Below, in pieces: positions 26,159-53,308 of a DNA stretch of 64,000 nucleotides (position 1 is the stretch's first letter; every line of letters begins with the position of its first letter). The notes under the pieces are model-generated. The model was given only the letters and a program-made list of their open reading frames with translations, was not told the DNA's origin and did not search any database. Location of the stretch: positions 1 through 64,000 of IMG/VR virus record IMGVR_UViG_3300009128_001633; one strand, given 5' to 3'. The translations under genes were made by a program, and so were the position numbers. This DNA comes from a virus.

Positions 26159-27160
26159 CTACCAGTCGGCGATTCCTTTTATTTTTGAAGCTAAGTTGTC
26201 TACCACTTTTTGAAGACTGAAATATTTTTGATAAAACTTTCTAGGCTTAAATTCACGTTCCTTATCAAGAACATACTTCAAGGCATGAACAAAATCACTG
26301 CCATCTATTCTGACACAAGAGTCATCATAAAAATAATCATCCCATATATATAGTCCATCATTATCTCTAACAACAACTGGTATATCCATGCATAACATCT
26401 CTGGAATAACTCTTGGGCAACTATCACCTTCACTACAACAAACGCCTACCCTTGCCATACAAGCTAATTCAGGAATATCTTTACGAGGAACCCATCCATT
26501 AAACGTTATATTTAAATCTAAATTTTTAGCCAATTCAATAATCTCAGGATCAGTATTACCTATTTGTAATATTTTCAACCCACTGCCATCCATTATTTCA
26601 AGAAACCATTTATGACCTTTTATCTTTTTTTGTTTAGCATTAGCGATAAAAACAACATCATAGATTTTTTCTTTAGAAATAGGATAAAATATATTCCCAC
26701 AAGCAGGTTTTAAAAACTTGTGAACCTCATACCCACTATCTTTTAGTTCCAAAAATTGTTTTCTACTGTCAGCCAATACAAGGTTATAATCCGTAAGGTC
26801 TCCATTGGCCTTTGGGTTAAATCTAGCTTTAAAAATAGCCCCATAGTATAGCTTAAAAGCCTTTGAACATGCTTGCATAACCGGCATGTATTCTTTGAAT
26901 CCACCACGACTAAATATGAAATCAAAGTTCAAATTATCTATCGGAAATTCTCTCCACCACCATTCAATGAAATCATCCAAATATCTAACTGATCTAGGAC
27001 CACCATTCCACATCCATATTTCACTGTGGTTAAACTCAAACTTTTTATGTAACATAAAAAACAACCATATCCACATGTCATCAACTTCATATATAGAATC
27101 AAACATTATTCTTTCTTTATCTTTTGGAACTTCCTGTCTTAACATTAGTCCGGTCTTCAT
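26159..27160 (-). CDS. Glycosyltransferase (GT-B, GT4-like)
   Basis: YDVVFIA.....KG, F.GWVPR..I, DSCPRVIPE.L....PVV. Confidence 0.8.
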   Translation of the reverse strand: MKTGLMLRQEVPKDKERIMFDSIYEVDDMWIWLFFMLHKKFEFNHSEIWMWNGGPRSVRYLDDFIEWWWREFPIDNLNFDFIFSRGGFKEYMPVMQACSKAFKLYYGAIFKARFNPKANGDLTDYNLVLADSRKQFLELKDSGYEVHKFLKPACGNIFYPISKEKIYDVVFIANAKQKKIKGHKWFLEIMDGSGLKILQIGNTDPEIIELAKNLDLNITFNGWVPRKDIPELACMARVGVCCSEGDSCPRVIPEMLCMDIPVVVRDNDGLYIWDDYFYDDSCVRIDGSDFVHALKYVLDKEREFKPRKFYQKYFSLQKVVDNLASKIKGIADW

Positions 27161-28245
27161 AGTTCACTCCTACTTATTATTTCAGCTATTTTAGCTCCCG
27201 CCATACCATCTCCAATTGCTTTTGATTCCAATTGATCTTTTCTTTTAAAAGCATAAGAAGCCCTTTCGCTTATTGCGTTCGGATTAACACCAACTAAATC
27301 AACGTGACCAGATTTAACTAGATTATCCCACTCTGTTACATTTCTTAAAACAATACATGGCACACCGAAGAATGCTGATTCCTTCTGTACTCCACCAGAA
27401 TCTGTTATTATAACTTTTGCATTTTTCTCCAATGACAACATATCGTTGTAACCAACAGGATTTATGACAAAAAAATCTTTAGTCATCCTAAATAACTTAT
27501 CCAACCCAATATTTTCTATAGCTTCCATTGTCCTGGGATGCATTGGAAAAACAATAGGACATCTACCAATACAAAGCATTAATAATCCTTCAACTATTTG
27601 TTTGAGATTGTCATTATCTGGAGAAGTATTTATTTCCCTATGAACAGTGACCAATATATACTTTCTTTTTTCAACTTCTAATTTATTAAGTATATTGTCA
27701 ACTATCTTGTCTTTAAATTGAAGAAACATATCATACATTACATCACCAACTAAATAAACATTTGATTCTATTCTTTCATTCGATAAATTTTCCATAGATT
27801 CAATAGTTGGACAAAAAAGAATCTCAGACATGTGGTCTATTACTATTCTATTCATTTCTTCAGGCATCATTTCAAAACTTCTCATACCTGCTTCTATATG
27901 TATTAGTGGAATTTCCATCTTACAACAAGCAACTGCTCCAGATATAGCTGAATCTGTATCACCAAAAACTATGACATAGTCAGGTGAATCCATTTCTATT
28001 ATTTTCTTTATTTCAGTTATTGTTTGTGAAAGTCTTAACATGCGATTTTCTCTAGACACATTAAGCATATATCTACATTTACCATTCATATTAAAATCAT
28101 TAAAAAATATATCTGACATATTTTCATCATAATGATGACCAGTATGTATTAGTTTTTCTTCTATTCCATACTCTTTTAAATGTTTAGAAATTCCAGCAGA
28201 TTTTATGAATGTTGGTCTAGCACCAATAACAGTAAGAACTTTCAT
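27157..28245 (-). CDS. wecB: UDP-N-acetylglucosamine 2-epimerase (non-hydrolysing)
   Basis: VIGARP.FIK, HTG.HYD, GDT, HIEAG.RS, MPEE.NR, T.HR..N, TDSGGVQKE, R..TEW. Confidence 0.95.
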   Translation of the reverse strand: MKVLTVIGARPTFIKSAGISKHLKEYGIEEKLIHTGHHYDENMSDIFFNDFNMNGKCRYMLNVSRENRMLRLSQTITEIKKIIEMDSPDYVIVFGDTDSAISGAVACCKMEIPLIHIEAGMRSFEMMPEEMNRIVIDHMSEILFCPTIESMENLSNERIESNVYLVGDVMYDMFLQFKDKIVDNILNKLEVEKRKYILVTVHREINTSPDNDNLKQIVEGLLMLCIGRCPIVFPMHPRTMEAIENIGLDKLFRMTKDFFVINPVGYNDMLSLEKNAKVIITDSGGVQKESAFFGVPCIVLRNVTEWDNLVKSGHVDLVGVNPNAISERASYAFKRKDQLESKAIGDGMAGAKIAEIISRSEL

Positions 28246-28811
28246 TTTATTATTCCTTTAAACAAAAATATCTTAGAATTCTTTTTATGGTTCATTAATA
28301 TAACCTGCATTGATTCAAAGTCCACAACTTCTTTATATCTATCAACAACAAGCTCAACTGTTGCAAAATATCTAACATGAGAAGCAAAATCCCTGTTAGG
28401 CACAGAACATATTATTGTAGATCTCTTAGGTATGCTTTTTAGAACTTCTATGTCTTTAGTTATGTGTTCAAGAACCTCCAAACATACGAATATCATATCA
28501 CTTTCATATAATTTTAATATGTTAACATCTAATAAATTGCTACAAATAAATTTATAATCTGAAACACGATTAATTGCCTTGCTTATAACTTCTTTAGAAA
28601 AATCAATGCCTATATAATTCTTATAGTTTTTCTTTGAAAGCATTTCAGCAAAAAAACCAGCACCACAACCAAGATCCACTATGGTTGGACAAAAATTTGA
28701 TGACGGTAAATAATTAATGACTTGTTCATATAACTTAAAATAACGCTTAAATCTATTTCCTTTTATATAACCATCACCAGTATAATATTCTGGACCTCTT
28801 TCAGTTCCCAT
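28242..28811 (-). CDS. SAM-dependent methyltransferase
   Basis: IVDLGCGAG, GIDFS, CLEVLEHI, SVPN. Confidence 0.9.
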   Translation of the reverse strand: MGTERGPEYYTGDGYIKGNRFKRYFKLYEQVINYLPSSNFCPTIVDLGCGAGFFAEMLSKKNYKNYIGIDFSKEVISKAINRVSDYKFICSNLLDVNILKLYESDMIFVCLEVLEHITKDIEVLKSIPKRSTIICSVPNRDFASHVRYFATVELVVDRYKEVVDFESMQVILMNHKKNSKIFLFKGIIK

Positions 28812-29748: not shown

Positions 29749-29749
29749 A

Positions 29750-30268
29750 CTATATCCTTTCGTCTTCTCTAACTTCTCCTATTTTAGTTGCCGGTCTACC
29801 TCTATATATGCAATTAGGACTTGTATTTTTAGCCACCAATGATCCAGCTTGAACCATAGAGTTTCTGGCTATTCTCACTGATGGCATGATAATAACTCCT
29901 GCACCTATGCGTGTTCCGCATTCAATATATGGAGGTTCTGATAATGGCTTATAATGTCTGGCATGAGATATTTCTTTTGTGTTAGTAGTTACGACACCCA
30001 TTCCAATGAAAACATTATCTTCAATTACACAACCTTTACATATGTTAGAGAATTGCATAACTCTAACATTTTGTCCAATACGAGCTCCTTCGGCTATAAA
30101 ACAAAAGGATCTAACTTCCGACTTATTGCCAATTATAACACTAGGTCTAATAACAGTGTGATGACCAATGAAACAATCATTCCCAATATTTGTATCTTCT
30201 GATACCACTGCACCATATTCTATTCTTGTATAATTCCCTATTATAGCCAAATCACTAATCTCATTCAT
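29750..30268 (-). CDS. Hexapeptide-repeat acetyltransferase
   Basis: Left-handed beta-helix repeats; G.PA..I C-terminus. Confidence 0.9.
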   Translation of the reverse strand: MNEISDLAIIGNYTRIEYGAVVSEDTNIGNDCFIGHHTVIRPSVIIGNKSEVRSFCFIAEGARIGQNVRVMQFSNICKGCVIEDNVFIGMGVVTTNTKEISHARHYKPLSEPPYIECGTRIGAGVIIMPSVRIARNSMVQAGSLVAKNTSPNCIYRGRPATKIGEVREDERI

Positions 30269-30269
30269 A

Positions 30270-30779
30270 TTAGCTCCTTAAAAGGAATACCTCTTTTTCA
30301 GTAACATCTCGTAATTTCCTAGCTGGAATTCCAACGTATAGACCATACGGTTCTGTGTTCTTATTCACAAGGCTACATGCTCCAATGATACAATTCGAAG
30401 CAATTTTCACTCCATTCATAATAACAACGTCATCACCAACAAAGCAACCATTACCAACAATTAATGGGTTTGAAATAGCTCTTTTATTATAGATTGTTTC
30501 AACCCCAACTGAAAAATATACATTATCTTCAATTATAACATTTCTTGCTATAACTGATTTATATCTTAAAGTGACATTATCACCAATAACATTACCACCA
30601 GATGATATAACATAACTATCTATAAAAACATTATTACCTATTCTTGTCCCTTTTTTAAGAAACACATGATTGCAAATTTCAACATTATATCCAACAACAA
30701 CATTTTCCTCAATAATATTAAAATGTCCAATTTTTAAACCATTACCACTCATGAATGAATTGTGTATTATGTTATACAT
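30270..30779 (-). CDS. Hexapeptide-repeat acetyltransferase
   Basis: Hexapeptide repeats; IGACSLV.K......VGIPAR. Confidence 0.9.
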   Translation of the reverse strand: MYNIIHNSFMSGNGLKIGHFNIIEENVVVGYNVEICNHVFLKKGTRIGNNVFIDSYVISSGGNVIGDNVTLRYKSVIARNVIIEDNVYFSVGVETIYNKRAISNPLIVGNGCFVGDDVVIMNGVKIASNCIIGACSLVNKNTEPYGLYVGIPARKLRDVTEKEVFLLRS

Positions 30780-31551
30780 GATTTAATCTCCCGTATATTG
30801 TTAATACATTTTCATAAAACAATCCATTCTTAACTTCATCAGTAATATTAGATAAATTAATGCAATATATAGCCATTCTTAAATCAGCATATGGTTCATC
30901 AGATCCAAATATGATTTTACGTTTTCCTAATTTATCTACAGCTTTTTCAATAAGCCACGGAAGTTTAACAGAAGAAGTATCCAGATATACATTATCTAAT
31001 CTCTCAATATATAATAAGTCTATGGCTCTTTCAATAAGATCTGCTGCATTGCCGCCAAGATGAGCAGCAATAAAATTTATAGTCTTAAATCTTTTGGCGG
31101 CATCTATCAAATACTTAATATCACTTCGCCAATGTCTTCCGCAATGTACTAATATTGGAAGACTAAATTCAGCAGCACACTCGAGAAAATCATCCATTTC
31201 CGGAACATCAAAGGTTGTTTCAGATATACTAGGATGATATTTTAGACCGCATATTATATCATTATAAAGAGATATCTGTTTCAAAGTCTCACTATCTTTT
31301 GGATCAATAACAAGTAACGGATAAAAAACTACTGGAAAAGACCATTTAGAATACTCTTCAATGAATTGCATATTCAGTGTAGAACTCTTCACTATATTAG
31401 ACAAATTAGGCATAACTACAGATCCATAAATACAATTTTCCATTTCCATAATTAATTCATGATAACTTTTTAACGAAAAGAACCTTTCTGTTTTTTCAGT
31501 TTTTCCTATATGTACATGACTATCAATTATAATGTTTTCAACTTTTTTCAT
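30772..31551 (-). CDS. Amidohydrolase-family metal-dependent hydrolase
   Basis: IDSHVHIG, GLKYHP, PILVHCG, AAHLGG, YLDTS, IFGSDEP. Confidence 0.92.
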   Translation of the reverse strand: MKKVENIIIDSHVHIGKTEKTERFFSLKSYHELIMEMENCIYGSVVMPNLSNIVKSSTLNMQFIEEYSKWSFPVVFYPLLVIDPKDSETLKQISLYNDIICGLKYHPSISETTFDVPEMDDFLECAAEFSLPILVHCGRHWRSDIKYLIDAAKRFKTINFIAAHLGGNAADLIERAIDLLYIERLDNVYLDTSSVKLPWLIEKAVDKLGKRKIIFGSDEPYADLRMAIYCINLSNITDEVKNGLFYENVLTIYGRLNHV

Positions 31552-32207
31552 AACCTATCTTCCTCCAGAACTTCACCTTTTTCTTTTGCAGGACTACCAA
31601 AAACTATTTTATTTTCAGGAACATCTTTCGTGACTACAGATCCGGCACCAATAATAGCATTATCTTTTATTATAACTCCTGGAAGAATACTTGCCATGTT
31701 TCCAATTCTCACACCTCTACCAATAGTAGGACCTATCAAGTTTTTACCATGACCGCTTCTTTTGAATCGCATCTTATAATCATTAGTAGTGCAAACCATA
31801 GGTCCAAGAAAAGTATAGTCACCAATAACAGTAAATTTAGTAATGTGACACTGAGCATTAATACCGCAATTATTACCAATCCTAGTATCTCCTTCACAAT
31901 TAACTAATCCTCCTACATAAGTATTGTTCCCTATTATGGTACGAGGAAGGATGATTGAATTATGACCTATGAATACTTTGTTTCCAAACTTACATCCTCC
32001 GTAAATAACACAACCAGATGAAAGTCTACACCAATCACCCAACTCAATTCTTCCATTTAATGGAAGTATATCCACAAAAGATACAGTTTCATCTATCGAA
32101 ACATTATCGCCAACTTTCAAGTAGTTACGTTCAATTAGATGTTTGAATTTTTCTGGTATTTTCGGAACTAACACTTCCGCTACTCCTTCTTTCTCTAACA
32201 CTAACAA
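31548..32207 (-). CDS. Hexapeptide-repeat acetyltransferase
   Basis: FLGP.VCTTND, IGAGSVVTKDVP....FGSPAK. The start may be slightly downstream. Confidence 0.9.
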   Translation of the reverse strand: MLVLEKEGVAEVLVPKIPEKFKHLIERNYLKVGDNVSIDETVSFVDILPLNGRIELGDWCRLSSGCVIYGGCKFGNKVFIGHNSIILPRTIIGNNTYVGGLVNCEGDTRIGNNCGINAQCHITKFTVIGDYTFLGPMVCTTNDYKMRFKRSGHGKNLIGPTIGRGVRIGNMASILPGVIIKDNAIIGAGSVVTKDVPENKIVFGSPAKEKGEVLEEDRL

Positions 32208-32700
32208 TACTAAAAACAGCTGGTTTTGAGATATGTACTAATTTAGCTAATTGTCCATAAGAAAAACCCATTTTCTTTCTCAGAATATATATCTCATCTT
32301 TTTGTTTTTTATTTAATTTCCATGTTGCTTTATTACTAACACGAAATCTATTTTTAGAATAAAAATAATTTTTTGTACTCTTCACTGGACCAACACTTTT
32401 TTCTTTAACTCTGCTGAGTAAATGTTTTATCCGATCATATATTTCCCTTATTTCTCTAAGTGCTTTATTATAAGAAGGATCGTTAACACCTAAACTGTTA
32501 TGTATTTTCATAACCTTTTTTCTATACAACCAATCTGCCCAACTTAATTGTTCGCCAATACATAACTTGTCATCTATATTAACAACTTCTTCTTCAAGAG
32601 CACCTAATGCGACAAAACACTTTTTCTTATTTAATGACTTTCTAACAACACTATATTTAACTTTCTTAGAAGGAAGTAGAGTATCCATATTATATACCAT
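32131..32700 (-). CDS. Hypothetical protein with C-terminal HTH
   Basis: GFSYGQLAKLVHISKPAVFSIV. Confidence 0.6.
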   Translation of the reverse strand: MVYNMDTLLPSKKVKYSVVRKSLNKKKCFVALGALEEEVVNIDDKLCIGEQLSWADWLYRKKVMKIHNSLGVNDPSYNKALREIREIYDRIKHLLSRVKEKSVGPVKSTKNYFYSKNRFRVSNKATWKLNKKQKDEIYILRKKMGFSYGQLAKLVHISKPAVFSIVSVRERRSSGSVSSENTRKIQTSN

Positions 32701-33604
32701 ATACAGATTTTAATTTATCACCAATAGCTTTATAACTATGGTGATTTTCAACCCATAATCTAGTGTTTTTCTTGCATGAAAGTAGCTCCGAATTATTGAA
32801 TTTAAGAAATTCTTTTAAGACACTTCTTAGTTCATTAATGTTATTAGCCACAATCAACTCAGGATTATTATTGTATTCTCTAACATATCTATTGTAACTA
32901 TTAAAATTAGTTATTACTAATTTTCCAAGAGCAGCAGCTTCTAACGCAGACACACCCCATTCACCTAATCTCATCTGCTCTATATAAATATCACATTCAT
33001 TAACTCTTTCCATTTGCTCCTTCCAAGTAACTCTTTCTATAGAAAACCTGTATATGAATCTGCTTGCAACATCTCTATTGTGCTTTAATTCACTTATTGC
33101 TTTATTAACTATATTTGAACCTTTCGTATCAGCAGAAGATGGATAATGACCTACAATTATTTTTTCACCTTCATTGAAGGAATAATCAGGCTTAATAGCT
33201 TCAATGTCTACAGCAGGAAGAACCCACTTCTCATTCTTGGCTCCCCTACCTAACAGATCACCAGTTTGTATTAATGTTCTTTCTACAATGGGATTAAATA
33301 CAGCATTTACTTTAGCAGGATTATCTCTATAGTGACCACCACCATGAAAAACAAACACTCTTTTTTTAGATAAATCAATACCGGTATCTATATAACTACT
33401 ATGCATAAATTGTATAATGTCTGCTTCCTCAGCATAGTGTCTAACGTTTTCTAATGCAAAAGCTTTGTTTGGGTATTTATAGTAGTTAGGAGATTTACCC
33501 AACATTACAGCATCAACGCCAACTTTCTGTAGACACATGGAAAATGTGTACCCCAAATTAGCCCAATCATTTTTTGCAAGTAACAAAACTCTCATTTCAT
33601 CCAC
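32690..33604 (-). CDS. Glycosyltransferase (GT-B)
   Basis: VGHYPS....KG, CDIYIEQ...G.WG.SALEAAALGK.VI. Confidence 0.85.
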   Translation of the reverse strand: MDEMRVLLLAKNDWANLGYTFSMCLQKVGVDAVMLGKSPNYYKYPNKAFALENVRHYAEEADIIQFMHSSYIDTGIDLSKKRVFVFHGGGHYRDNPAKVNAVFNPIVERTLIQTGDLLGRGAKNEKWVLPAVDIEAIKPDYSFNEGEKIIVGHYPSSADTKGSNIVNKAISELKHNRDVASRFIYRFSIERVTWKEQMERVNECDIYIEQMRLGEWGVSALEAAALGKLVITNFNSYNRYVREYNNNPELIVANNINELRSVLKEFLKFNNSELLSCKKNTRLWVENHHSYKAIGDKLKSVYGI

Positions 33605-34515
33605 CTCTCACAAACAAGATCTGTGAATTTATCAACCATGACCTTATTATTATAATGTTTTCTAACAAATTCCATACCATTATTGGCAATCCACTCACGT
33701 TCGTGTTCTTGCTCTAAATAATATAGTATTTTTTTTCTCAAATCATTAAGACCATTATAGATAACTAAATGTTTTCCATCAATGTAACCAAATTCTTTAA
33801 GATCCTCTGGTTTATCAGCTAATAAGAAAGATCCACAAGCCATCACTTCAGTATATTTTCTACTTAGTGATCCAAAAATATTATTACTTGTGACAACTAT
33901 CCTTGAATAATTAATATCATCAACATATTGACTAACTGTTGTTTTATTACGTTTATAAGATACATTCATGGTTGATAACATATCCAACAACTTAGCTCTT
34001 AATGGATACACATCATCACGAATTGTGTATCTTGCACAAACATCATACTCTTTAAAAAAATTAAGTCTCTTTCTAAACACCTTAGTATTTACAGAAAATG
34101 GCATCAAAAAAGATTCTCTGCAAGCACCACATTCAACAACATATTTTCCCATATATGACACTGGAACAAATGCTAAATCATATTTACTTCTTTCCATATA
34201 TTCTTGATATTGCGGCTGACATCCTCTATAATTACCCTTCGGTGGAAAATAATCAACAAGATAAATAAGTTTAGGTATAGTGACCTTATCCATATCTATT
34301 TCAAATGGCATTCTGAACCCATACTTAAATATAATATCAGGCTTATATTGGCTAACAACATCTGTAATTGGCCTGTTTTCATCATAACCATCTCTAAGTG
34401 GACCCCACCATATAACCTCATGATATTTTGCAAACTCACTTACAAAATAGTGATGACCAAGCAAATTCTGTTTCCCAACCTTCAACATATCTCTTACAAT
34501 TAACAATATTCTCAT
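33592..34515 (-). CDS. Glycosyltransferase (CgeB-like), paralog of 28801..29748
   Basis: Shares SRIVVTSNNIF.S.S.KYTEV.ACG.FLLAD.P.DL...GY.DGKH with 28801..29748. Confidence 0.88.
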   Translation of the reverse strand: MRILLIVRDMLKVGKQNLLGHHYFVSEFAKYHEVIWWGPLRDGYDENRPITDVVSQYKPDIIFKYGFRMPFEIDMDKVTIPKLIYLVDYFPPKGNYRGCQPQYQEYMERSKYDLAFVPVSYMGKYVVECGACRESFLMPFSVNTKVFRKRLNFFKEYDVCARYTIRDDVYPLRAKLLDMLSTMNVSYKRNKTTVSQYVDDINYSRIVVTSNNIFGSLSRKYTEVMACGSFLLADKPEDLKEFGYIDGKHLVIYNGLNDLRKKILYYLEQEHEREWIANNGMEFVRKHYNNKVMVDKFTDLVCERWMK

Positions 34516-44198: not shown

Positions 44199-44955
44199 AA
44201 TATTCTATTAACACTCCTATTACGCCGACCTTCTGACCATAATCATCGTTACCATCATGATCTCTATAGAGTTTCAACATAACAGTTTCACCCGCTACTA
44301 AATCTGTCACTGTAACTGTATTACTTAATGGAGTCATAAAAATATCATATTGAGCATGTGTCATTCCAGTTTCATTAGAAGCAATCTCATCACCAAATGT
44401 ACCATTCAAAGAATCTCCATCTCCTATTGAATATCCACTTAGTTTAAATTCAACTTCTTCGTTGCTGGGACCAGTCGCATTGGTTACTAAACATTTGACA
44501 ATGAATTTTATTCCTGAAGATGCTATGATATTGGTTGGCACTTCCCACCCATAAACTAGATCCTCACTAGAATCATTAGCAAAAGTTCTAGCAGATATAG
44601 CACCATTACCACTTGTGTAATTAGAAGCACTATCCGGCGGAGAAGATCCGTTTAGCCAATCTCTTACGGGAATAAAACTATACGTCTTTCGTATAGTTAC
44701 AGGGCCAACAGAAGTCCAATCTGTTCCATTCCATGCCACTTCGTCATTAGCATAGAATGATTGACCAGTGTTTGTCTTAGTACCGTCGTTATCTGTAACA
44801 TCAGCGGTTACTCTATAAAACCAACCAGTTTCAACAGCGGCAGATGTTGGAAAATCAGCAGCAACACCAATTGCGCCCTTAAACTGTAAAGGAGAAGATA
44901 TGTTCTGGACTTGATCAAAACTTCCAGAAATTGGATTTATCGTATGCTTTTTCAT
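44179..44955 (-). CDS. Putative virion protein; C-terminal domain related to 56280/57073
   Basis: AGGAGGT RBS; QFKG......PT.....GW.Y.V repeat-type N-part; C-part aligns with the tail paralogs. Confidence 0.65.
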   Translation of the reverse strand: MKKHTINPISGSFDQVQNISSPLQFKGAIGVAADFPTSAAVETGWFYRVTADVTDNDGTKTNTGQSFYANDEVAWNGTDWTSVGPVTIRKTYSFIPVRDWLNGSSPPDSASNYTSGNGAISARTFANDSSEDLVYGWEVPTNIIASSGIKFIVKCLVTNATGPSNEEVEFKLSGYSIGDGDSLNGTFGDEIASNETGMTHAQYDIFMTPLSNTVTVTDLVAGETVMLKLYRDHDGNDDYGQKVGVIGVLIEYYEKITA

Positions 44956-44966
44956 TTATATACCTC

Positions 44967-45194
44967 CTAACTATAGGAATATCCTGCTCTTTCATCCCAC
45001 TCTTTGTCAAACTCATTAGTACCATCTGCAAATTGAACATCTGTGACGTTGCCATCACCATCAACTGTTACTTTTCTAATTTGCCATTCTGTATCACTTG
45101 TGGCAGTTCCTGGAGCAGCATATCCTATATAAACAGGATTACCACCAGAATACGTCGCTTTCATAGTCAGTGAAGTCTCTTGAAACGGTAACAT
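44967..45194 (-). CDS. Small putative virion protein
   Basis: AAGGAGGTG RBS; YIGYA.PG.ATS...WQIRK...FADG...FDK.WD.R..YSYS. Confidence 0.7.
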   Translation of the reverse strand: MLPFQETSLTMKATYSGGNPVYIGYAAPGTATSDTEWQIRKVTVDGDGNVTDVQFADGTNEFDKEWDERAGYSYS

Positions 45195-45230
45195 TTTTCC
45201 ACCTCCTTTAAATTAGTATAATATAGTTAA

Positions 45231-45261
45231 TATACAAGTTAAGAAGCTAATTTATAATAAA
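45231..45261 (-). promoter_or_regulatory. Putative phage promoter TTTATTATAA-N14-TTGTATA
   Basis: Second copy of the 13691-13721 motif. Confidence 0.55.
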
Positions 45262-45909
45262 TTAATTTTTCAAATTCCCATCATTCAATCGCATCATGAA
45301 CTTAGCTATCCTTCTATCTGAAAACCACCATGACACACAAGTTACTGTCAAATAAATAGCAGCATCAACAGATAACATCACTATTTTAACAGCTTGTTCA
45401 ACAGTCCATTGATGATTAGAAACTTTTAATATGCCCAATGCTTCCGTTAATATTTTACCAAAAACAATAATAAGAAAAATTGTAATTCCAGGTCTCATTA
45501 AGTGTTTTATGAAATCAACAAGTCCGAAAGCAAAAGCAACAATAGTGGCAATTGGAATTGTAAAATATCTAGGCCATCCCTCTACTTCCATCATCTTAGT
45601 CATAAAAGAAGCCTTAAACAAAGAAACCATAGCATTCTTTTGACTTTGCATAAATGATTCAGCTTCTTTAAGATTAATAGCACCTTCAATTTCTGACTTC
45701 TTGATCTGCATATTCATATCAGCTTCGGCCATAGCATAAATATGATCTTGTCTATCTGCCTTAATTTCAAGCTCTTTCAACTCCATCTTTTGCTTGTGAG
45801 CCTGTTTTTGTTTGAAATAGTTAAATATGTTGGAGAACAATGATCCAAAAATACCAGTTACGACTCCTCCAACAGGTCCACCGAAAATAGTTGCTAATGT
45901 TGATAACAT
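45262..45909 (-). CDS. Membrane protein, holin-like
   Basis: Several hydrophobic segments; MRP.IT and WWFSDR motifs; adjacent to the DUF5675 gene. Confidence 0.6.
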   Translation of the reverse strand: MLSTLATIFGGPVGGVVTGIFGSLFSNIFNYFKQKQAHKQKMELKELEIKADRQDHIYAMAEADMNMQIKKSEIEGAINLKEAESFMQSQKNAMVSLFKASFMTKMMEVEGWPRYFTIPIATIVAFAFGLVDFIKHLMRPGITIFLIIVFGKILTEALGILKVSNHQWTVEQAVKIVMLSVDAAIYLTVTCVSWWFSDRRIAKFMMRLNDGNLKN

Positions 45910-46328
45910 TAGAATTCCTCCCTTATTTTAAGTAAATACGTTTCACCGCACATAATTCTCATAAACTTCTTTACTATTGGGCGAGAACACAAAACAGCTT
46001 CTTGCCCTTTTAGCTTTCCAAGATATTTTCCTAATAACTGGCATCCATTTGTATGTGTAAATAATCCTAAAGAAACATCTCCACATAGATTCCCAGAATG
46101 TTGTAATATATATAATCTGCCGGGAACATTTGTAATATGATAAGTTATCCCATATTTAGGAGATTCTCTTAGCTTAACCAAATAATCTCCTACTGGAATG
46201 CAAGATATACTTCTTACATTATTTCTCCATGGCAATTCACCAACAAAAAAAGAAAACTCAGGAATTATAATACGACCAAACGTCCCATGATCTGATTTTT
46301 TGATTCTTATGTGTATTACTTCTATCAT
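45909..46328 (-). CDS. DUF5675-family protein (putative endolysin/peptidase)
   Basis: TFG.I, ELPWRNN...SCIP.G.Y, VPGR..IL.H.GN, HTNGC.LLG. Confidence 0.8.
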   Translation of the reverse strand: MIEVIHIRIKKSDHGTFGRIIIPEFSFFVGELPWRNNVRSISCIPVGDYLVKLRESPKYGITYHITNVPGRLYILQHSGNLCGDVSLGLFTHTNGCQLLGKYLGKLKGQEAVLCSRPIVKKFMRIMCGETYLLKIREEF

Positions 46329-46726
46329 TATATATCCCCTAGACATTCTGGTTTAACACTAAGTGCAGATGGATAAGGAGACCCGTTAAAAAATTTATCA
46401 ACTTTTCTATCAAAATCACTATCAATGTATAAAAATTTTAGTTTATAATCAAATATAACAAAAGGTTGTTTCATTTTAACTCCATTACAAACAAGAAAAA
46501 CAGCATTAAAAGCACAATTATCATTTTTATCATGATAATGATGCAATATTGCATCATTAGGACTTATATTACGAACTAGACTAGTGAAAACAATATTATA
46601 TCCACTAAGATCTGGCATAAAACGTTTATCAGAAGAATCAACATTATGTGGAGATGAAAAAACTATGAAGGGATAAAAAAAACATAAAAACAAAATAAAC
46701 AACGAAAATCTTTTTAAAGTACACAT
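46328..46726 (-). CDS. Hypothetical exported protein
   Basis: AGGAG RBS; N-terminal hydrophobic signal. Confidence 0.6.
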   Translation of the reverse strand: MCTLKRFSLFILFLCFFYPFIVFSSPHNVDSSDKRFMPDLSGYNIVFTSLVRNISPNDAILHHYHDKNDNCAFNAVFLVCNGVKMKQPFVIFDYKLKFLYIDSDFDRKVDKFFNGSPYPSALSVKPECLGDI

Positions 46727-46752
46727 AGTTATATCTCCTGTTTTGCTATGAA

Positions 46753-47229
46753 CTATCTTATGTTTTTGTTACTAAAAAACTTAAATATTTTTTCATATTT
46801 TTTTACAATCCATCTACTAAAACCATTAGCAATTTTTAAATCTCTTAATCTACAATAAATATGCAATGGATTTAAAAAATGACTAAAACCACCTTTCCTT
46901 AAAACAAATTTCTCAAGAAACATACGATAAATCATTGTGATCATTATTAAAAATGTACCAATCACAATAAATAAATCTTTTACTTTCCAATACCATCTAT
47001 GCAAAAAATCAAAATCATAAAACGTACTTCCAATTCTACCGTAAACTAACATGTAATAATGTAATACAATCCCCGCCATGGTTATTCCTACAGAAAAATA
47101 TACATGACCAATACTTCCACGTTTAACCCATTTTCTTGTCCAATCCCAAACAAACAAACATAAAGTTATATAAGAAAACAAAGATATTGAAATATAACTC
47201 CAAAGAGTCCAATCATTTAGCACATCCAT
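46753..47229 (-). CDS. Membrane protein (about 3 TM)
   Basis: GGAGG RBS before MDVLNDW; hydrophobic segments. Confidence 0.6.
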   Translation of the reverse strand: MDVLNDWTLWSYISISLFSYITLCLFVWDWTRKWVKRGSIGHVYFSVGITMAGIVLHYYMLVYGRIGSTFYDFDFLHRWYWKVKDLFIVIGTFLIMITMIYRMFLEKFVLRKGGFSHFLNPLHIYCRLRDLKIANGFSRWIVKKYEKIFKFFSNKNIR

Positions 47230-47404
47230 TAGACATCCTCCCCCACTTATTTTCACCATTAAGAGTAACTTCAGCATTCTCTAATAAACAGTTAGCATTT
47301 TTAATCGATTTTTTTGTTTCACTTATGACCTTTAACACTTCTTCTCTTGATGTTCTTAAAGGCTTCCTCCACAAATGAAATTCTATATTCCCAAATAGTT
47401 TCAT
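47213..47404 (-). CDS. Hypothetical protein
   Basis: AAGGAG RBS. Confidence 0.6.
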   Translation of the reverse strand: MKLFGNIEFHLWRKPLRTSREEVLKVISETKKSIKNANCLLENAEVTLNGENKWGRMSNGCAK

Positions 47405-47419
47405 TTTTCGTTAACTCCT

Positions 47420-47650
47420 TTACGGTTTTTGGATGACTTTCATAATACCATCAAGTACACCTGAAAAATGATCTACCGAAGTCCTAACATCCTTAAATGT
47501 ATCCTGCATATCACCAATGGTACTCCAAGCCTTATCAGCTTCTTTTTCTCTTGCTTTTTCTTGCCAATATATAACAACTAAAAGACAAAACATACCAACA
47601 AGAGGCAATGGAATAACATTAAAAGCATCAGCTAACCATTTCATAAACAT
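47420..47650 (-). CDS. Small membrane protein, holin-like
   Basis: One TM plus coiled coil; AGGAG RBS. Confidence 0.55.
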   Translation of the reverse strand: MFMKWLADAFNVIPLPLVGMFCLLVVIYWQEKAREKEADKAWSTIGDMQDTFKDVRTSVDHFSGVLDGIMKVIQKP

Positions 47651-47653
47651 CTC

Positions 47654-47854
47654 CTATATTACAAACATTTTACCATTCTCTGTTATGTCAATTGTGGCAG
47701 TTTCAACTATGAATTCTCCACCGACTATTAGCTGTTCATATTCATCTATTGTTAATGTTCCACTTGCTATTTTCCAATCCGTCACATTTTCAGCAGCATG
47801 TTCATCAGCATCTAATGTGCCATCAATGTCAAGAGATGTAGTTTGTATAGCCAT
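47654..47854 (-). CDS. Small putative virion protein
   Basis: GAGGT RBS; acidic and beta-rich; N-terminal MAIQTT shared with 51655..52185. Confidence 0.65.
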   Translation of the reverse strand: MAIQTTSLDIDGTLDADEHAAENVTDWKIASGTLTIDEYEQLIVGGEFIVETATIDITENGKMFVI

Positions 47855-47864: not shown

Positions 47865-49109
47865 TCATAATGATGTCTTACTTAAAACTAATGAACAAAT
47901 ATCAAGAACTGCCTTCAGATGTCTGACTGTAAGTTCTTTTACACCACTTTTCGCTATTGCTAATTCATACAACACAACGAATAACAATTTCTGCAAATCA
48001 TTCAATATCGCAGAATTGATTCTTATTTCCTTACCAACTAATTTAGCATCCGAACTAAGAAAATTATACGGATTAATAACTATGTTTGAATCAACAATGG
48101 CGACCAATTTTCTACAAACACTAAGATTTCCATCTTCATCATCGCTCAGAATACTCTTGCTAATCATAACTTCCTTCTTTTCATCCAATGCTTCAACAAC
48201 TTTAGCATCTGTATTAATAAATTCTGCAAGAATATTTGTTAAATCTTTTGGAAAAGATACAACAACATATTTATCAATTGATTTAAGCCTTTTAGAAGCA
48301 GATTTATCAACAGAAAGAACAGCATTGTTGCCATATTCTTTGTAAAAAGCTTTTTTCCAACGACCAATGTTTTCCTTTTGAATTGAAACTAAATCAGCAC
48401 CATATTCACCTTTTTTAGTCCTGACGGCCTTGTAAAAAGTTCTTATTAGAGAAACATCATCTACGGAAGACCATATATAACCAATACACCTTCTTATATC
48501 ATACGGATCAGCAACATTTCCTTCATCTAATTTTATAAAAGGAGAATTATAACTATATCTATATTGACTTATTCCCTGACAAAATATGTCTCTGACATAC
48601 AAACCTGAAGGTCTTTCTGCAACTATCTGTCCTTTGTTAGAAGAAAAAATTATTCTTTTATCACCTTTCTTAATTATTCTATTTTCAAAAACATCACCAT
48701 TATACCCTTTTATGAAAACAGTTGTTCCATTCTTATGTTTAGCGTTATTTGTATATTCAACAGCAAAAACAGATTCATTTTCTATTTCTTCAACAACAGA
48801 TGATATCAACAAATCACCAGTATGGACTTTGACAACATAACCATTACGCAGAAACACTATCATCGCTATTTTTAAACCTTCTCCATGTTTACCTCTTGGA
48901 TTTTTAATCTTCTTATCCGTAACACCTAATATCAAATGTTTGAAGCTGAAACCATTACCATTATCAAATATGGTGACACCTTCAAGAGATTTTTTAACAA
49001 TAAAATACCCCGCTTCATCAAGCGAATTTTGATAAATCTCTCTAAAAGCTTCCCAAAATCCCCAATTTTTACGATATTGAATGCTTATTGGATATACTAT
49101 TTTCTCCAT
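47865..49109 (-). CDS. GHKL (HATPase) ATP-binding protein
   Basis: REIYQNSLDE, DNGNG, GKHGEGLK, GTTV. Confidence 0.85.
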   Translation of the reverse strand: MEKIVYPISIQYRKNWGFWEAFREIYQNSLDEAGYFIVKKSLEGVTIFDNGNGFSFKHLILGVTDKKIKNPRGKHGEGLKIAMIVFLRNGYVVKVHTGDLLISSVVEEIENESVFAVEYTNNAKHKNGTTVFIKGYNGDVFENRIIKKGDKRIIFSSNKGQIVAERPSGLYVRDIFCQGISQYRYSYNSPFIKLDEGNVADPYDIRRCIGYIWSSVDDVSLIRTFYKAVRTKKGEYGADLVSIQKENIGRWKKAFYKEYGNNAVLSVDKSASKRLKSIDKYVVVSFPKDLTNILAEFINTDAKVVEALDEKKEVMISKSILSDDEDGNLSVCRKLVAIVDSNIVINPYNFLSSDAKLVGKEIRINSAILNDLQKLLFVVLYELAIAKSGVKELTVRHLKAVLDICSLVLSKTSL

Positions 49110-49888: not shown

Positions 49889-49890
49889 TT

Positions 49891-50934
49891 TTAATTCCTC
49901 TTATTACTTATATCCACAACTTCTTCATATAATTTTAGATATTTCTTCGTTGCATTATCCATGCAAAAGTTTTCTTGAGCATATTTAAGTGTTTCATTAA
50001 AAACATTTTCTGGATTATCATTTATGTTTTTCCAACATTCATAAATTGCATTTGCTATTGAAACTGGATCCATAACAATGGCATGATATCTAGTATATCC
50101 ACCACGATATGAAACGACCGGAATGCCCATAGCCATAGCTTCCAAAGTATCTCTACTAGTTATACCATTTATGTTTGAATTAAATGAAATATCGGCACCT
50201 CTTAAAAATGGCCTTAAATCCCTTAACTGTAGTTGAACATTTTCACAATATATGCTTAAATTTTTTGCTTTCAATATTGTTTCTCTCCATAATGAAACAT
50301 CTGTAAGTCTGATGCAAAATATGTTCAACCTTGCCTTGGGGATTAACTTTATAACTTCAGACATAGACCATAATAAAGACATAGGAGTTTTATTAAACCG
50401 TATGTTGGCAGTAGATATTATTGCTGGTCTATAGTCATATTCCCACTTAAACCCATCAGGATTAAATCTTTGCAGATCAACAGAATCCTGTATGAACACT
50501 AAATTATTACCACGCTCATACATTTTCATTATATAATAATCAGACTCATTTATTGCAACAACTTTGTCAAATCGTTCTAAAAACGAAATATGTATATCAA
50601 ACTTTTGCTGACCAGTTTGAGTTTCTAACATAACCATATATTCAGCAGTTCCATGCATAATTGCTATATTACCATGTTTCCTAACATAAGGAACTAACTT
50701 CATCGGAACTGACCTATGCACGACCCAAACATCACATTCGTGTGCGTTTTTCCAAGGTTTACAAACAATACCACGATCAGTAAACCTTTCTGGATCTGGG
50801 TTTTCTTCATCGCAGTTTATTAAAATAGAATCCAATTCAGCTCTACGTTCACAAGTAATCTGGTCTATAACAAATTCGTGTAATCCAGATCTCCTTGGAG
50901 CCCATAAGCTAAAGTGAGCTATTTTCACTATCAA
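49891..50934 (-). CDS. Glycosyltransferase (GT4)
   Basis: VDLQRF.P, ADIS, TLEAMAMGIPVV. Confidence 0.88.
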   Translation of the reverse strand: MIVKIAHFSLWAPRRSGLHEFVIDQITCERRAELDSILINCDEENPDPERFTDRGIVCKPWKNAHECDVWVVHRSVPMKLVPYVRKHGNIAIMHGTAEYMVMLETQTGQQKFDIHISFLERFDKVVAINESDYYIMKMYERGNNLVFIQDSVDLQRFNPDGFKWEYDYRPAIISTANIRFNKTPMSLLWSMSEVIKLIPKARLNIFCIRLTDVSLWRETILKAKNLSIYCENVQLQLRDLRPFLRGADISFNSNINGITSRDTLEAMAMGIPVVSYRGGYTRYHAIVMDPVSIANAIYECWKNINDNPENVFNETLKYAQENFCMDNATKKYLKLYEEVVDISNKRN

Positions 50935-51655
50935 CCTCCCTAAAGAACCTTTTCCACTTTATCATCTTCTTATATTGCTTCCACTCATTTTTACAAAATA
51001 AGTTAAAATCTTTTTCAGGTTCATCAATTTCTACATTCATAGCACCTAAACAAAAACCAAAAATTCCAGCAAGAATGAAACCACTTTTTTCATTTAACCA
51101 TTTTTCGCACAATATGTTGAAATGTTCAAAATCTACATCAAAGAAAGAAGCAAATTTTTGACCAGTTCCATAAAATCTTTTAAAATACCCTTCTTCAGAA
51201 ATTTCAGGCATATGTATTCCTAAATTTCTACAAATCTTATGCTCCTCATATCCCCATTTTTGTTTTATACTTCCCAAAGCCCATCTATCCCAGCCTATTT
51301 GATTTTTTATTTCTATATCTTTAATATAAGCTGTCTTCCATATGCGTACACCATATATTGTTGTTTGTAAAGTTACATCAAATAAACTACCAATGACAGA
51401 AGCAACATTTATCCTAGATATTATTTTATATAGTACATCTATTGCACTTGGAAATAAAATACAATCAGAATCCAATATTATTAAGTATTCATAATTACAT
51501 TCATTTATAGCCTCTGATACAGCATTATATAATGGCTTATTTTCTATAATACGAATACTAAACTTTTTAAACGTTTGATGTTGGAGAGAGTCGATGCATT
51601 TATTAAAACGACTCTCTCCAACAGTCAATATTACTATTTCTAGCTGTTTATTCAT
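50909..51655 (-). CDS. Glycosyltransferase (GT2-like)
   Basis: CIDSL..QT, YLIILDSDCIL. Confidence 0.75.
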   Translation of the reverse strand: MNKQLEIVILTVGESRFNKCIDSLQHQTFKKFSIRIIENKPLYNAVSEAINECNYEYLIILDSDCILFPSAIDVLYKIISRINVASVIGSLFDVTLQTTIYGVRIWKTAYIKDIEIKNQIGWDRWALGSIKQKWGYEEHKICRNLGIHMPEISEEGYFKRFYGTGQKFASFFDVDFEHFNILCEKWLNEKSGFILAGIFGFCLGAMNVEIDEPEKDFNLFCKNEWKQYKKMIKWKRFFREVDSENSSL

Positions 51656-52185
51656 TATGCAACCGAAACATCATTCCATCTAAATACAAAATCTCCAGCA
51701 GAATCTCTACGAATATCCGTAACACGATATTCTTCAGAAACTGGTATTGACTTAATGTATTGTTCTAAACTAACTTCACTCTCGGCTTTTCGTGCCATTG
51801 AAATAGCTTTTTCAGCTTCTGAATCGACAATAACAGCATATGACTCTGCTATATCGGCTATTGAATCACCAACGACACCAAAAGACTCTCCACGACGTGC
51901 AATCGAGATAGATTTCTCACCTTCAGACTTGGCAAGTTCAGTTTCTGAATCAACAATAACAGCATATGACTGTGCTAACACAGCTATTGATCTTGCTTCA
52001 GAAGGATCAGTAGAAAGATCAGCTTCCGACCTAGCTTCACTGGCTTCATCTTCAGCTATTCTTGCAATTGATATTGCCTTCTCAACTTCCGATTTTGAAA
52101 GTTCAGTTTCTGAGTCAACAATAGTAGCATATGACTTTGCAGTAGAAACATCATTTGGATCAAACTTAGTAGTTTGTATTGCCAT
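51655..52185 (-). CDS. Acidic Ser/Ala-rich repeat protein (putative virion fibre)
   Basis: Three repeats of SYA.IVDSE...EK.IS.AR; C-terminus shared with 53325..53510. Confidence 0.7.
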   Translation of the reverse strand: MAIQTTKFDPNDVSTAKSYATIVDSETELSKSEVEKAISIARIAEDEASEARSEADLSTDPSEARSIAVLAQSYAVIVDSETELAKSEGEKSISIARRGESFGVVGDSIADIAESYAVIVDSEAEKAISMARKAESEVSLEQYIKSIPVSEEYRVTDIRRDSAGDFVFRWNDVSVA

Positions 52186-52186
52186 A

Positions 52187-53308
52187 TCATACCTCCATAA
52201 TCTTAATTATGTCACTAACCATACTATCTAATTGATAATCTCTTAAATGAGAAAACTTCTCCTCATAAGCATGTTCACCAACTTTCTTGACACTATGGTT
52301 GAATAATTCTTTATTTTTTAAGTAACTATATAACTCTTTGTGACTTTCTGATTTAAGGGAGACCTCTCTCTTTAACGCTTCCTCTAAACCATCACAAAAC
52401 TTTTGCCAACTAAACTGTTTAATTTTTACCAATCCAGATCTAGAAAGAATTACTCTAAGTTCACCATTATTTTTCAAAATACTATAAAACCTAGCTATTG
52501 TTTCTGGATTTACGTCAGGAATAACTAACGCTGTCTCATTGTTTATGGCAAAATTAGTAGTTCCAGCACTTGTACAAATAACTGGAGTTCCACACGCCAT
52601 CGCTTCAGCAGCAGTATTACACCATCCAGCAAGACCTTCGGCACTTATGAAAATATCAGCTTTACTATACATTTCCCTTAAACTATCTTGCGGTGGATTA
52701 ACGTAATGTTCTATTTCTAATGGTGTGTCATACTTCCATTTCTGTACATCATATAGCATTAATACTGGTGGATCTTTAACTAATTCTAATGCCTTAACGA
52801 TATTACCAGTATTTTTCCATCCACGATCAAACTTTGCATAAATAAGAACTCTAAATTTATCATCTTTCTCAACTTCAACAGGATAAAATTGCTCAAGATT
52901 CACACCACCACTTATTGTATAACCTTTATTATTGAACTTTTGTGGAAACCTTTTCTCCCAACCATTTGAAACACCTATTAATATATAATCACTTTTAATA
53001 TCATATGTACCAATACCATACCTTCTTGTATATGGAAAAATAATAAAAACAAATTTCTTTTGAGCATTGCATCTATCAAATATATCTAATGAAGGTGCAT
53101 CACCACACATAAGCACTTCATGTTTAACACTATGTACATTTTCAATTGGTGACAATTTACCATTATATTTAAACCAATCTGGAGGAGAACCATCACTGTG
53201 ATATATTGTATAATCATATCCCCTGATAACCATCTCATTACCTATCTCAAGAAATCTCTTAACTCCTCCGTATAATTTCAAATGTGGTAATATAACGCTT
53301 ATTTTCAT
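52187..53308 (-). CDS. Glycosyltransferase (GT4)
   Basis: LPHL..YGGVK, YSKADIF, AEAMACGTPVI, FSW. Confidence 0.9.
   Translation of the reverse strand: MKISVILPHLKLYGGVKRFLEIGNEMVIRGYDYTIYHSDGSPPDWFKYNGKLSPIENVHSVKHEVLMCGDAPSLDIFDRCNAQKKFVFIIFPYTRRYGIGTYDIKSDYILIGVSNGWEKRFPQKFNNKGYTISGGVNLEQFYPVEVEKDDKFRVLIYAKFDRGWKNTGNIVKALELVKDPPVLMLYDVQKWKYDTPLEIEHYVNPPQDSLREMYSKADIFISAEGLAGWCNTAAEAMACGTPVICTSAGTTNFAINNETALVIPDVNPETIARFYSILKNNGELRVILSRSGLVKIKQFSWQKFCDGLEEALKREVSLKSESHKELYSYLKNKELFNHSVKKVGEHAYEEKFSHLRDYQLDSMVSDIIKIMEV

Follow-up and report, generated by a model that had tools for sequence, protein, structure and literature searches.

A 27-kb island of soluble glycosyltransferase and tailoring genes closes the late operon of an uncultured marine phage and may serve to glycosylate its virion

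A glycan-building island at the end of a late operon

The stretch of DNA analysed here (the window) comprises 64,000 nucleotides, positions 1 to 64,000 of the 95,856-bp virus record IMG/VR IMGVR_UViG_3300009128_001633. On its minus strand, between positions 26159 and 53308, lies an island of 13 glycosyltransferase (GT) genes with 15 GT domains, identified from Pfam, NCBIfam, PHROGs and ESM Atlas matches, all-against-all BLAST and one AlphaFold/Foldseek run, along with a suite of sugar-tailoring genes (Table 1). A preliminary description of this DNA had put the numbers at about 13 genes and 15 domains, which we recover, with the proviso that three of the assignments (GT-B, 347 aa; GT1, 304 aa; GT-D-like, 265 aa) are weak. 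The 13 soluble GTs and the tailoring enzymes are a phage-owned, entirely cytoplasmic line for assembling and tailoring a glycan, placed at the end of a late operon.

The record (~31% GC) is classed as linear by IMG/VR and has both contig ends within a block of plus-strand early genes. CheckV estimates its completeness at 69%, so that the absence of export genes reported below is valid only for the DNA in hand. Island DNA was found solely in marine metagenomes of one study, and no RNA dataset is listed with it. The small and large terminase genes (87,991-85,595) open an unbroken minus-strand block, in which portal and head genes, a gene for a 2,572-aa tape measure, and those for tail protein L and a J-type tip protein precede the island. 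The island makes up the distal ~27 kb of this block and ends at 26,159. Beyond lies a convergent intergenic gap whose hairpin is probably a bidirectional terminator closing the late operon, followed by plus-strand replication and nucleotide-metabolism genes.

Genes are tightly packed throughout: of the 46 gene junctions between the start of the J-distal set and the last GT, 39 are overlaps or spacers of at most 15 nt, the widest gap is 71 nt, and the first GT4 gene starts 17 nt after a small virion-like open reading frame (ORF). GC content is even across the island. The preliminary description had placed the island in tight coupling downstream of both tail and lysis genes; the packing and the tail-distal position stand, but the lysis-like cassette (43.6-47.9 kb) turns out to lie inside the island, where it divides a part A (47.9-53.3 kb) from a part B (26.2-43.6 kb). 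Promoter and terminator scans gave no signal above chance between the tail genes and the island. Since candidate sites were in fact rarer than in shuffled controls, no internal transcription units can be derived from them, and it is gene order that suggests late expression. The phage is apparently lytic, with no integrase or Gtr-type conversion genes seen in the record. It has no close cultured relative: the tail region gave no megablast match among phages, and relatives of the J protein are distant (<30% identity, in T5-like and nickie-like phages), with none found in IMG/VR.

Thirteen glycosyltransferase genes and their tailoring enzymes

Pfam detects GT signals in ten island genes. The GT9 domain of the GT9-GT8 fusion matches, among NCBIfam models, only lipopolysaccharide (LPS) heptosyltransferases (I, II, III, RfaQ and RfaF), all of them far below their equivalog cutoffs; with 44.1 bits against a cutoff of 134.6 for the best model, TIGR02195, it does not score as an equivalog of the LPS core heptosyltransferases. 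The nearest NCBIfam model for the GT8 domain is LPS 3-alpha-galactosyltransferase, again far below cutoff. No BAHT-named model (the group of TibC and Aah, which carry out protein O-heptosylation) appears among the NCBIfam matches at E <= 0.01 for either GT9 protein; the tandem GT9-like protein matches no NCBIfam model, and a profile of its family matches no PDB sequence. The 354-aa protein has the fold of a GT4-type GT-B enzyme (AlphaFold2 mean predicted local distance difference test score, pLDDT, 83.7; Foldseek hits to PimA, BshA and PglA at E 1e-13 with TM-scores of 0.7-0.78). The GT-D-like protein has orthologues at 43-51% identity, and their profile reaches only E 0.93 against PDB entries 4pfx and 4phr, used as references for the GT-D fold (DUF1792, SRRP adhesin glycosylation). 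In the GT-A orthologue alignment, an LEDDW (DxD-type) motif is invariant. A domain homologous to the weakly assigned 347-aa GT-B occurs fused with a GT9-like domain in another protein (P0051). Single-sequence PDB searches with the 627-aa, 354-aa, 406-aa, DUF5675 and 412-aa proteins were uninformative.

The tailoring enzymes are much as the preliminary description had them. WecB is secure, scoring 264.9 bits against TIGR00236 (equivalog cutoff 210) and 91.1 bits, below cutoff, against the NeuC model; all five acyltransferases are there, as are two deacetylase-like enzymes (PIG-L and Amidohydro_2). The exception is the pair of methyltransferases, one of which (28242-28811) is strong while the other (34512-35099) gives only a weak signal. 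The acyltransferases are hexapeptide proteins and mutual paralogues, with 29-38% identity among them; identity between the two CgeB-like GTs is 41%. Both observations argue that part of the island grew through local duplication. One acyltransferase is LpxD-like, at 159.5 bits against TIGR01853 (cutoff 242.5), with an alignment that leaves out the N-terminal uridine-binding part of LpxD. It lies next to the PIG-L de-N-acetylase, and the two are kept together in a related phage (contig L021, PIG-L 62% identical). The pair suggests that an N-acetyl group is removed from an amino sugar and another, possibly longer, acyl group put in its place.

None of the 13 GT genes or the tailoring genes encodes a transmembrane (TM) segment, in agreement with the preliminary description, and hydropathy, scanned first over called genes and then over all six frames, revealed no polytopic membrane protein anywhere in the 95.9-kb record, island included. 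Profile searches of the record in six frames, with positive controls working, were negative for Bac_transf (PF02397), Glycos_transf_4 (WecA/MraY, PF00953), Polysacc_synt (Wzx, PF01943) and Wzy_C (Wzy/ligase, PF04932), and a six-frame search for GtrA (PF04138) was likewise negative. The earlier claim that flippase, Wzy, undecaprenyl-phosphate transferase and Gtr are missing thus holds up for the DNA in hand. The island does not have the makeup of a Wzx/Wzy- or ABC-dependent O-antigen or capsule locus, for want of a phosphoglycosyl transferase (PGT), flippase and polymerase/ligase (ABC-transporter families were not searched). Nor is it a serotype-conversion system of the GtrABC/Oac kind, although such systems likewise let phages modify glycans, also by acetylation: their proteins sit in the membrane, come from temperate phages and act in the periplasm, whereas the island has no GtrA match, no polytopic protein and acyltransferases of the soluble hexapeptide type.

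Could the enzymes act on the host envelope?

One explanation is that the phage GTs act on host lipid A-core, or on a host undecaprenyl-linked intermediate, at the cytoplasmic face of the inner membrane. The altered glycan would be exported by host MsbA/Lpt or by host Wzx or ABC transporters and would modify the surface of the infected cell, for instance to block superinfection or the loss of progeny on debris. The GT9 and GT8 domains score exclusively against models of LPS-core enzymes; the LpxD-like acyltransferase adjoins a de-N-acetylase; and WecB together with enzymes of O-acetyltransferase type is typical of loci for O-antigen, enterobacterial common antigen and capsule. The likeness to LPS core assembly (WaaC/WaaF/WaaQ of GT9, WaaO/R/I/J of GT8, WaaG of GT4) extends to the CAZy-type families and to soluble or peripheral enzymes, and the pairing of a deacetylase with an LpxD-like N-acyltransferase recalls the LpxC/LpxD logic of lipid A. 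GTs of the Waa pathway (GT9, GT8, GT4) are soluble, work on lipid A-core and leave export of the product to MsbA. A phage flippase would therefore be unnecessary, and the argument from its absence is weak. A strongly basic character, usual for peripheral membrane GTs, is seen in several island GTs. Net charge and isoelectric point were rejected as a means of telling DNA, membrane and protein acceptors apart because they are ambiguous. Published cyanophage GT sets have been interpreted as remodelling the host surface (PMC12801897), and the incompleteness of the record leaves room for further genes.

Several observations argue against this explanation. The matches to LPS enzymes are far below equivalog level (44 vs 134.6 bits), the tandem GT9-like family is virus-specific, and the ORFs scanned included no genes for Kdo, heptose synthesis or lipid A. 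The genes belong to the phage and form part of a late operon; as the phage is apparently lytic, LPS made at that stage would account for little of the cell surface. PGT, Wzx, Wzy/ligase and Gtr genes are missing from the record, and 13 GT genes far exceed known conversion systems. As described next, the GT9-like clade is small and overwhelmingly viral, and its members occur inside virion modules of unrelated phages. We regard remodelling of the host envelope as a doubtful account.

A virus-centred GT9-like family that fuses with other island enzymes

A HMMER search with the tandem GT9-like protein returned just 160 matches among 1.84 billion representatives, and the Atlas clusters of the family are 86-95% viral. 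A clade this small and this centred on viruses is not what we would expect of a recently captured bacterial heptosyltransferase or host LPS gene. Many members combine GT8 with GT9-like domains. One 1,260-aa protein (P0003) unites all four domains of the GT9-GT8 and tandem GT9-like genes in a single polypeptide, and a 922-aa protein (P0007) joins three of them. Other fusions link GT9-like domains with CgeB-like GTs, GT2 or sugar O-methyltransferases. Virion, lipid-binding or DNA-binding domains are absent from the fusions of the family. Because fusions are confined to enzymes of this toolkit, they indicate that the island families form one coupled pathway; the acceptor is not revealed by them.

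In phages unrelated to the one considered here, GT9-like genes again keep the company of virion genes: a cluster follows the portal gene in L009, another directly precedes the tape measure gene in L081, and in L014/G002 a GT9-like gene comes after a baseplate wedge gene. G002 is a 124-kb phage genome bounded by direct terminal repeats, in which eight GT2 matches, a GT1 and a GT9-like gene lie within ~22 kb just after the baseplate genes. When the GT9-GT8, tandem GT9-like and CgeB-like proteins were compared with 50,697 phage records by tblastn, the sole homologue was a match to the GT8 domain in Synechococcus phage S-CAM7 (27% identity); no actinobacteriophage, the group to which Che8, Corndog and Myrna belong, was matched by these three GTs.

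A conserved core and a variable periphery

A single-protein scan of IMG/VR with the GT9-GT8 protein found nothing, and a word-based search for homologous proteins yielded just the cluster of its query; relatives were recovered by family-based scans of IMG/VR and JGI metagenome contigs. As the preliminary description had proposed that related phages be surveyed for the locus, it is worth noting that L018, L020, L021, L022 and L049 carry versions of it that differ in size and content. Uncultured relatives share with the island a core made of the GT9+GT8 fusion, the tandem GT9-like, GT4-fold, GT-D-like and GT-A enzymes, and the LpxD-like and PIG-L pair. GT9-GT8 orthologues (45-55% identity) occur in L020, L049 and L025, and orthologues of the GT4-fold protein in L018, L021, L023, L026 and L049. 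Around the core lies a lineage-specific extension comprising WecB, the two CgeB-like GTs, further GT4/GT1 genes, four more acyltransferase paralogues, the methyltransferases and the amidohydrolase. Part A is a second module, set between the J-distal fibre-like genes and the lysis cassette.

Two contigs from the same sample (L020 and L021, 28% GC) keep the gene order seen here, from lysis-like genes to the 171-aa acyltransferase, at 49-77% identity. On the 58.8-kb contig L049, the island measures only ~9 kb (a 121-aa gene, GT9-GT8, one GT9-like, GT4-fold, acyltransferase, GT-A and the terminal GT4, 53% identical) with flanks as here, including homologues of the convergent plus-strand genes after the island. 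L022 has the 121-aa gene together with a single triple-domain enzyme of 922 aa, immediately next to the convergent module. In L018, the four-domain fusion is accompanied by GT4-fold and GT-D-like genes and followed by nine unrelated ORFs of 200-245 aa. The island thus ranges from a single triple-domain gene (L022) through ~9 kb (L049) to ~27 kb in the window. A conserved core with a fast-changing periphery means that the locus varies as bacterial serotype loci do, and variation in size and content between the same flanks is what diversifying selection on a surface structure would be expected to produce. We also note an HNH endonuclease gene (L022:72-1280) just upstream of the minimal island, consistent with mobile-element traffic at the locus. 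More distant contigs contain long co-directional arrays that mix the island families. Two distant islands with GT9-like genes encode ~650-aa proteins (L036:380-2347 and L044:3777-5735) that match the phage alpha-2,3-sialyltransferase family phrog_4603 at E 1e-23 to 1e-25. Some phage glycans made by islands with GT9-like genes may therefore carry sialic-acid-like sugars.

Such turnover might also mean that there is no single product. Core, extension and part A could be separate acquisitions that serve different acceptors, for example virion proteins, host glycolipids or products that are soluble or secreted, in which case the total gene count overstates the size of any one glycan. The lysis-like cassette cuts part A off from part B, nothing equivalent to part A lies upstream of the core in L049, relatives differ widely in gene content, and unrelated genes are embedded in the island (the GHKL-like 414-aa and the basic, HTH-like 189-aa proteins). 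However, families of the core and the extension are repeatedly fused elsewhere (GT9-like with CgeB-like, methyltransferase, GT2 or GT8), and both packing and GC content are uniform across the island. We judge a mosaic of this kind unlikely.

What does the glycan decorate?

The reading we consider the single most likely, with a probability of roughly 0.45, is that the glycan is built on an acceptor made by the phage, most probably one or more exposed virion proteins. From the gene content and its arrangement we infer that expression is late, which sugars serve as donors, what kind of product is made and, most of all, what receives it. Host nucleotide sugars and phage-made UDP-ManNAc would supply the donors; the product would be a branched heteroglycan, acetylated or acylated and methylated; and exposed virion proteins would be modified before lysis, yielding a particle with a strain-variable sugar coat. 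Several considerations favour a virion acceptor. The island is embedded in a virion/late module, here and in L009, L014/G002 and L081. Virion-like genes (the 258-aa ORF and the 176-aa repeat protein) are interleaved with GT genes. The GT9-like clade is virus-specific, and the locus is serotype-like in its variation. Finally, there is experimental precedent in mycobacteriophages (Freeman et al. 2023, as described in PMC12363180 and PMC12619734).

Che8, Corndog and Myrna are reported to use their own GTs to glycosylate capsid and tail-tube proteins, with glycans located at C-termini by mass spectrometry (PMC12363180, PMC12619734). Shared features are soluble phage GTs, a cytoplasmic site, the lack of export machinery and a virion-protein acceptor, which for the island is proposed. 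The mycobacteriophage systems differ in having few GTs, in belonging to actinobacteriophages and in that their glycans have been shown, whereas we deal with 13 GT genes and ~10 tailoring genes of a low-GC marine siphovirus. Giant viruses (chlorovirus PBCV-1 and the mimivirus fibril clusters; PMC4691112, PMC7019647) offer a second comparison, with virus-encoded, soluble, multi-domain GT/methyltransferase enzymes that work independently of the endoplasmic reticulum and clusters that vary between clades. They have eukaryotic hosts, other GT families and solved glycan structures, and the resemblance is architectural only. The preliminary description had likened the scale of the island to that of giant eukaryotic viruses, and in scale the two are indeed comparable; no homology is claimed. 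Chloroviruses possess multi-domain GT/methyltransferase enzymes, and the fusions within the island families resemble these. In its working the island is close to glycosylation in mycobacteriophages and in giant viruses; by homology it is a member of neither.

Keeping this reading in mind, a number of points weigh against it. Among named enzymes, those closest to the GT9 and GT8 domains are of the LPS core rather than the protein heptosyltransferases TibC/Aah, and the LpxD-like acyltransferase likewise points toward glycolipid chemistry. Soluble GTs are usual in LPS, O-antigen and capsule pathways, so that solubility does not discriminate between the readings. No mucin-like, collagen-like or long Ser/Thr tract, as a glycan acceptor might have, exists in any real gene of the record, and the J-distal 'fibre-like' proteins (53325-58311) match no known fibre family. 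The island GTs that were tested have no homologue in a cultured phage and hence no known biology. Late timing depends on gene order, and the record is only ~69% complete. The preliminary description had taken the missing flippase, Wzy and PGT to mean that the glycan sits on the phage's own particle; on the grounds given above this is still the likeliest outcome, but the missing genes are compatible with a host-surface product as well.

The preliminary description had also named DNA as an alternative acceptor. On this reading, some or all island GTs would extend a sugar set on phage DNA by an early-gene system (a thymidylate-synthase-family hydroxymethylase with a putative beta-glucosyltransferase), giving oligosaccharide-bearing bases that block restriction. 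A thymidylate-synthase-family gene is present at 7944-9146, and there is precedent. Phage GTs that resemble LPS and teichoic-acid enzymes, some of them paired with epimerases, add mono- to trisaccharides (hexose, N-acetylhexosamine, heptose, Kdo) to DNA, and their clusters may neighbour structural genes and enzymes of thymidylate-synthase type (10.1101/2023.12.21.572611). The fold class of the 354-aa protein (BshA/MshA-like) is one reported there for GTs acting on DNA, and the tandem GT9-like and GT-A proteins are very basic (net charge +26 and +17). Like some of the phage hypermodification clusters (a group that includes T4 alpha/beta-GT), the island combines GTs of LPS/teichoic-acid ancestry with an epimerase and structural-gene neighbours. 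Published DNA glycans, however, have at most three sugars and one to few GTs, encoded beside base-modifying enzymes; 13 GT genes and five acyltransferases are of another, several-fold larger, scale. The island lies at least 17 kb from the early DNA-modification genes, on the opposite strand and in the late operon. At 31% GC about a third of bases are T; if each carried a long glycan, the sugar would weigh more than the DNA, so that only rare sites could bear one. A beta-glucosyltransferase-like (BGT-like) label for the 406-aa protein at 1839-3059 was not confirmed by sequence (it has no Pfam, PHROG or PDB sequence match), and for the folded 354-aa GT the 40 chains listed out of the top 50 ranks are GT4 enzymes and do not include T4 BGT. 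Modification of DNA is weaker than modification of the virion as an explanation, and in our view very unlikely.

If virion glycosylation is correct, one may tentatively picture a lineage of marine siphoviruses in which a serotype-like hypervariable locus, here with 13 soluble GT genes and ~10 tailoring enzymes of LPS-core ancestry, gives the particle a large heteroglycan, acylated and methylated, a counterpart of the coats of giant viruses that possibly mimics the host surface. The conserved core would then be a virus-specific assembly enzyme of GT9, GT8 and GT9-like domains.

Other genes in and around the island

Coordinates of all features are collected in Table 1. Among the non-GT genes, the 121-aa gene is always directly upstream of the GT9-GT8 gene in four lineages (here, L020:2905-3255, L022:2342-2674 and L049:7772-8095). 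Its product combines a basic N-terminus with a single long helix, by prediction, and a YN motif that is invariant at the C-terminus. We considered it as a glycan acceptor and dropped the idea, since the predicted fold is one long helix with disordered ends (pLDDT 72, predicted TM-score 0.33) and suggests no function. The 176-aa repeat protein, whose C-terminal domain is paralogous to the 61-aa ORF at 53325-53510, is speculatively a candidate acceptor or virion protein. Within the lysis-like cassette, DUF5675 has been read as a C82-like peptidase fold among predicted lysins in a 2026 preprint.

The 414-aa phrog_6077 protein lies between GT genes and the lysis-like cassette and is not obviously glycan-related. 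The C-terminus of the 189-aa basic protein weakly resembles the helix-turn-helix (HTH) of a sigma-like 'positive control factor' (E 6.6e-4), and on this similarity it may be an island-internal regulator. Two pairs of paralogues follow the J gene: those at 56280-57059 and 57073-58311 are 73% identical across the C-terminal 213 residues, and those at 53520-53897 and 53773-54192 overlap by 125 nt.

Table 1. Features of the island and its surroundings, in the direction of the late block (SAM, S-adenosylmethionine; pI, isoelectric point).
Feature	Position	Strand	Evidence
Tail protein L	62860-63507	-	Profile searches
J-type tip protein	58324-62469	-	Profile searches
GT4, 373 aa, first gene of part A	52187-53308	-	Pfam Glycos_transf_1 E 3e-13; phrog_2170 glycosyltransferase
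176-aa acidic protein (pI 4.4), three Ser/Ala/Glu-rich repeats, between two GTs	51655-52185	-	Sequence, paralogy
GT2, 248 aa	50909-51655	-	Pfam Glycos_transf_2 E 4e-8, above cutoff
GT-B/GT4-like, 347 aa, weak	49891-50934	-	Pfam Glyco_trans_1_4 E 1e-5 (just below cutoff); NCBIfam GT4 models E 2.5e-4
GT2, 258 aa	49112-49888	-	Pfam Glycos_transf_2 E 1.5e-26
414-aa phrog_6077 protein, weak GHKL-ATPase (HATPase_c_3) signal	47865-49109	-	Profile search
Lysis-like cassette: small 1-3-TM proteins, DUF5675 protein, 258-aa ORF	43965-47854	-	Profiles, hydropathy, synteny in L020
DUF5675 (C82-like peptidase), candidate endolysin	45909-46346	-	Profile search
258-aa ORF	44179-44955	-	C-terminal domain common to two J-distal fibre-like paralogues, E 4e-7
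121-aa basic, long-helix protein	43580-43945	-	Position conserved in relatives
GT9 + GT8 fusion, 634 aa, core gene	41666-43570	-	Pfam Glyco_transf_9 E 1.6e-15, Glyco_transf_8 E 4.6e-11
Tandem of two GT9-like GT-B domains, 627 aa, core gene	39814-41697	-	Homologue search, Atlas clusters
GT4-type GT-B, 354 aa, core gene	38678-39742	-	Fold; no Pfam match
GT-D-like, 265 aa, weak, core gene	37871-38668	-	Pfam GT-D-like E 2.4e-4; NCBIfam GT-D_rel E 1.8e-5 (both below cutoff)
GT-A (GT2-like), 253 aa, core gene	37135-37896	-	Atlas structure, TM-score 0.7-0.8 to GT2 clusters
LpxD-like left-handed beta-helix acyltransferase, 251 aa	36395-37150	-	Pfam Hexapep; NCBIfam TIGR01853 lpxD E 1e-46
PIG-L family de-N-acetylase, 205 aa	35605-36222	-	Pfam PIG-L E 3e-9
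Hexapeptide acyltransferase, 171 aa	35096-35611	-	Pfam; 77% identical L021 orthologue
195-aa protein, weak SAM-methyltransferase N-terminal signal	34512-35099	-	NCBIfam Erm/KsgA E ~1e-3
CgeB-like GT-B	33592-34515	-	Pfam Glyco_trans_1_2 E 1.2e-15
GT1, 304 aa, borderline	32690-33604	-	Pfam Glycos_transf_1 E 5.5e-6
189-aa very basic protein (pI 10.1, net +24)	32131-32700	-	Weak sigma-like HTH signal
Hexapeptide acyltransferase	31548-32207	-	Profile search, paralogy
Amidohydro_2/TatD-like metallohydrolase	30772-31551	-	Profile search
Hexapeptide acyltransferase	30270-30779	-	Profile search, paralogy
Hexapeptide acyltransferase	29750-30268	-	Profile search, paralogy
CgeB-like GT-B, 315 aa	28801-29748	-	Pfam Glyco_trans_1_2 E 2.7e-22
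Class I SAM methyltransferase, 189 aa, strong	28242-28811	-	Profile search
WecB, non-hydrolysing UDP-GlcNAc 2-epimerase (makes UDP-ManNAc)	27157-28245	-	Pfam Epimerase_2 E 2e-88
Terminal GT4, 333 aa	26159-27160	-	Profile search; 53% identity to last island gene of L049
Convergent intergenic gap, GC-rich hairpin GGGGAG...CTCCCC, A/T runs on both sides	25962-26158	.	Sequence

Significance

Inventory, conserved core, fusions and the size gradient among relatives are solid. Thirteen GTs have been described as possibly the highest number in a marine phage (PMC12801897), a count that the island equals in one contiguous block of a 96-kb siphovirus record, and its scale is matched by few published phages. 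Whatever the acceptor, there is a virus-specific GT9-like clade with GT8, GT2, CgeB-like GTs and O-methyltransferases as its obligate fusion partners, in a locus that grows from one gene to more than 25 between related phages. This constitutes an undescribed phage glycan toolkit, whose signature GTs (the three tested) lack counterparts among sequenced phages, bar the S-CAM7 match noted above. Its minimal form, the 922-aa enzyme of L022 with its 121-aa partner, is small enough for biochemical reconstitution. If the product does coat the virion, self-glycosylation by phages would extend from a few GTs in mycobacteriophages to a 27-kb system of giant-virus scale in abundant uncultured marine phages, with possible effects on the adhesion of virions to particles, on the evasion of grazers or host receptors, and on persistence in seawater.

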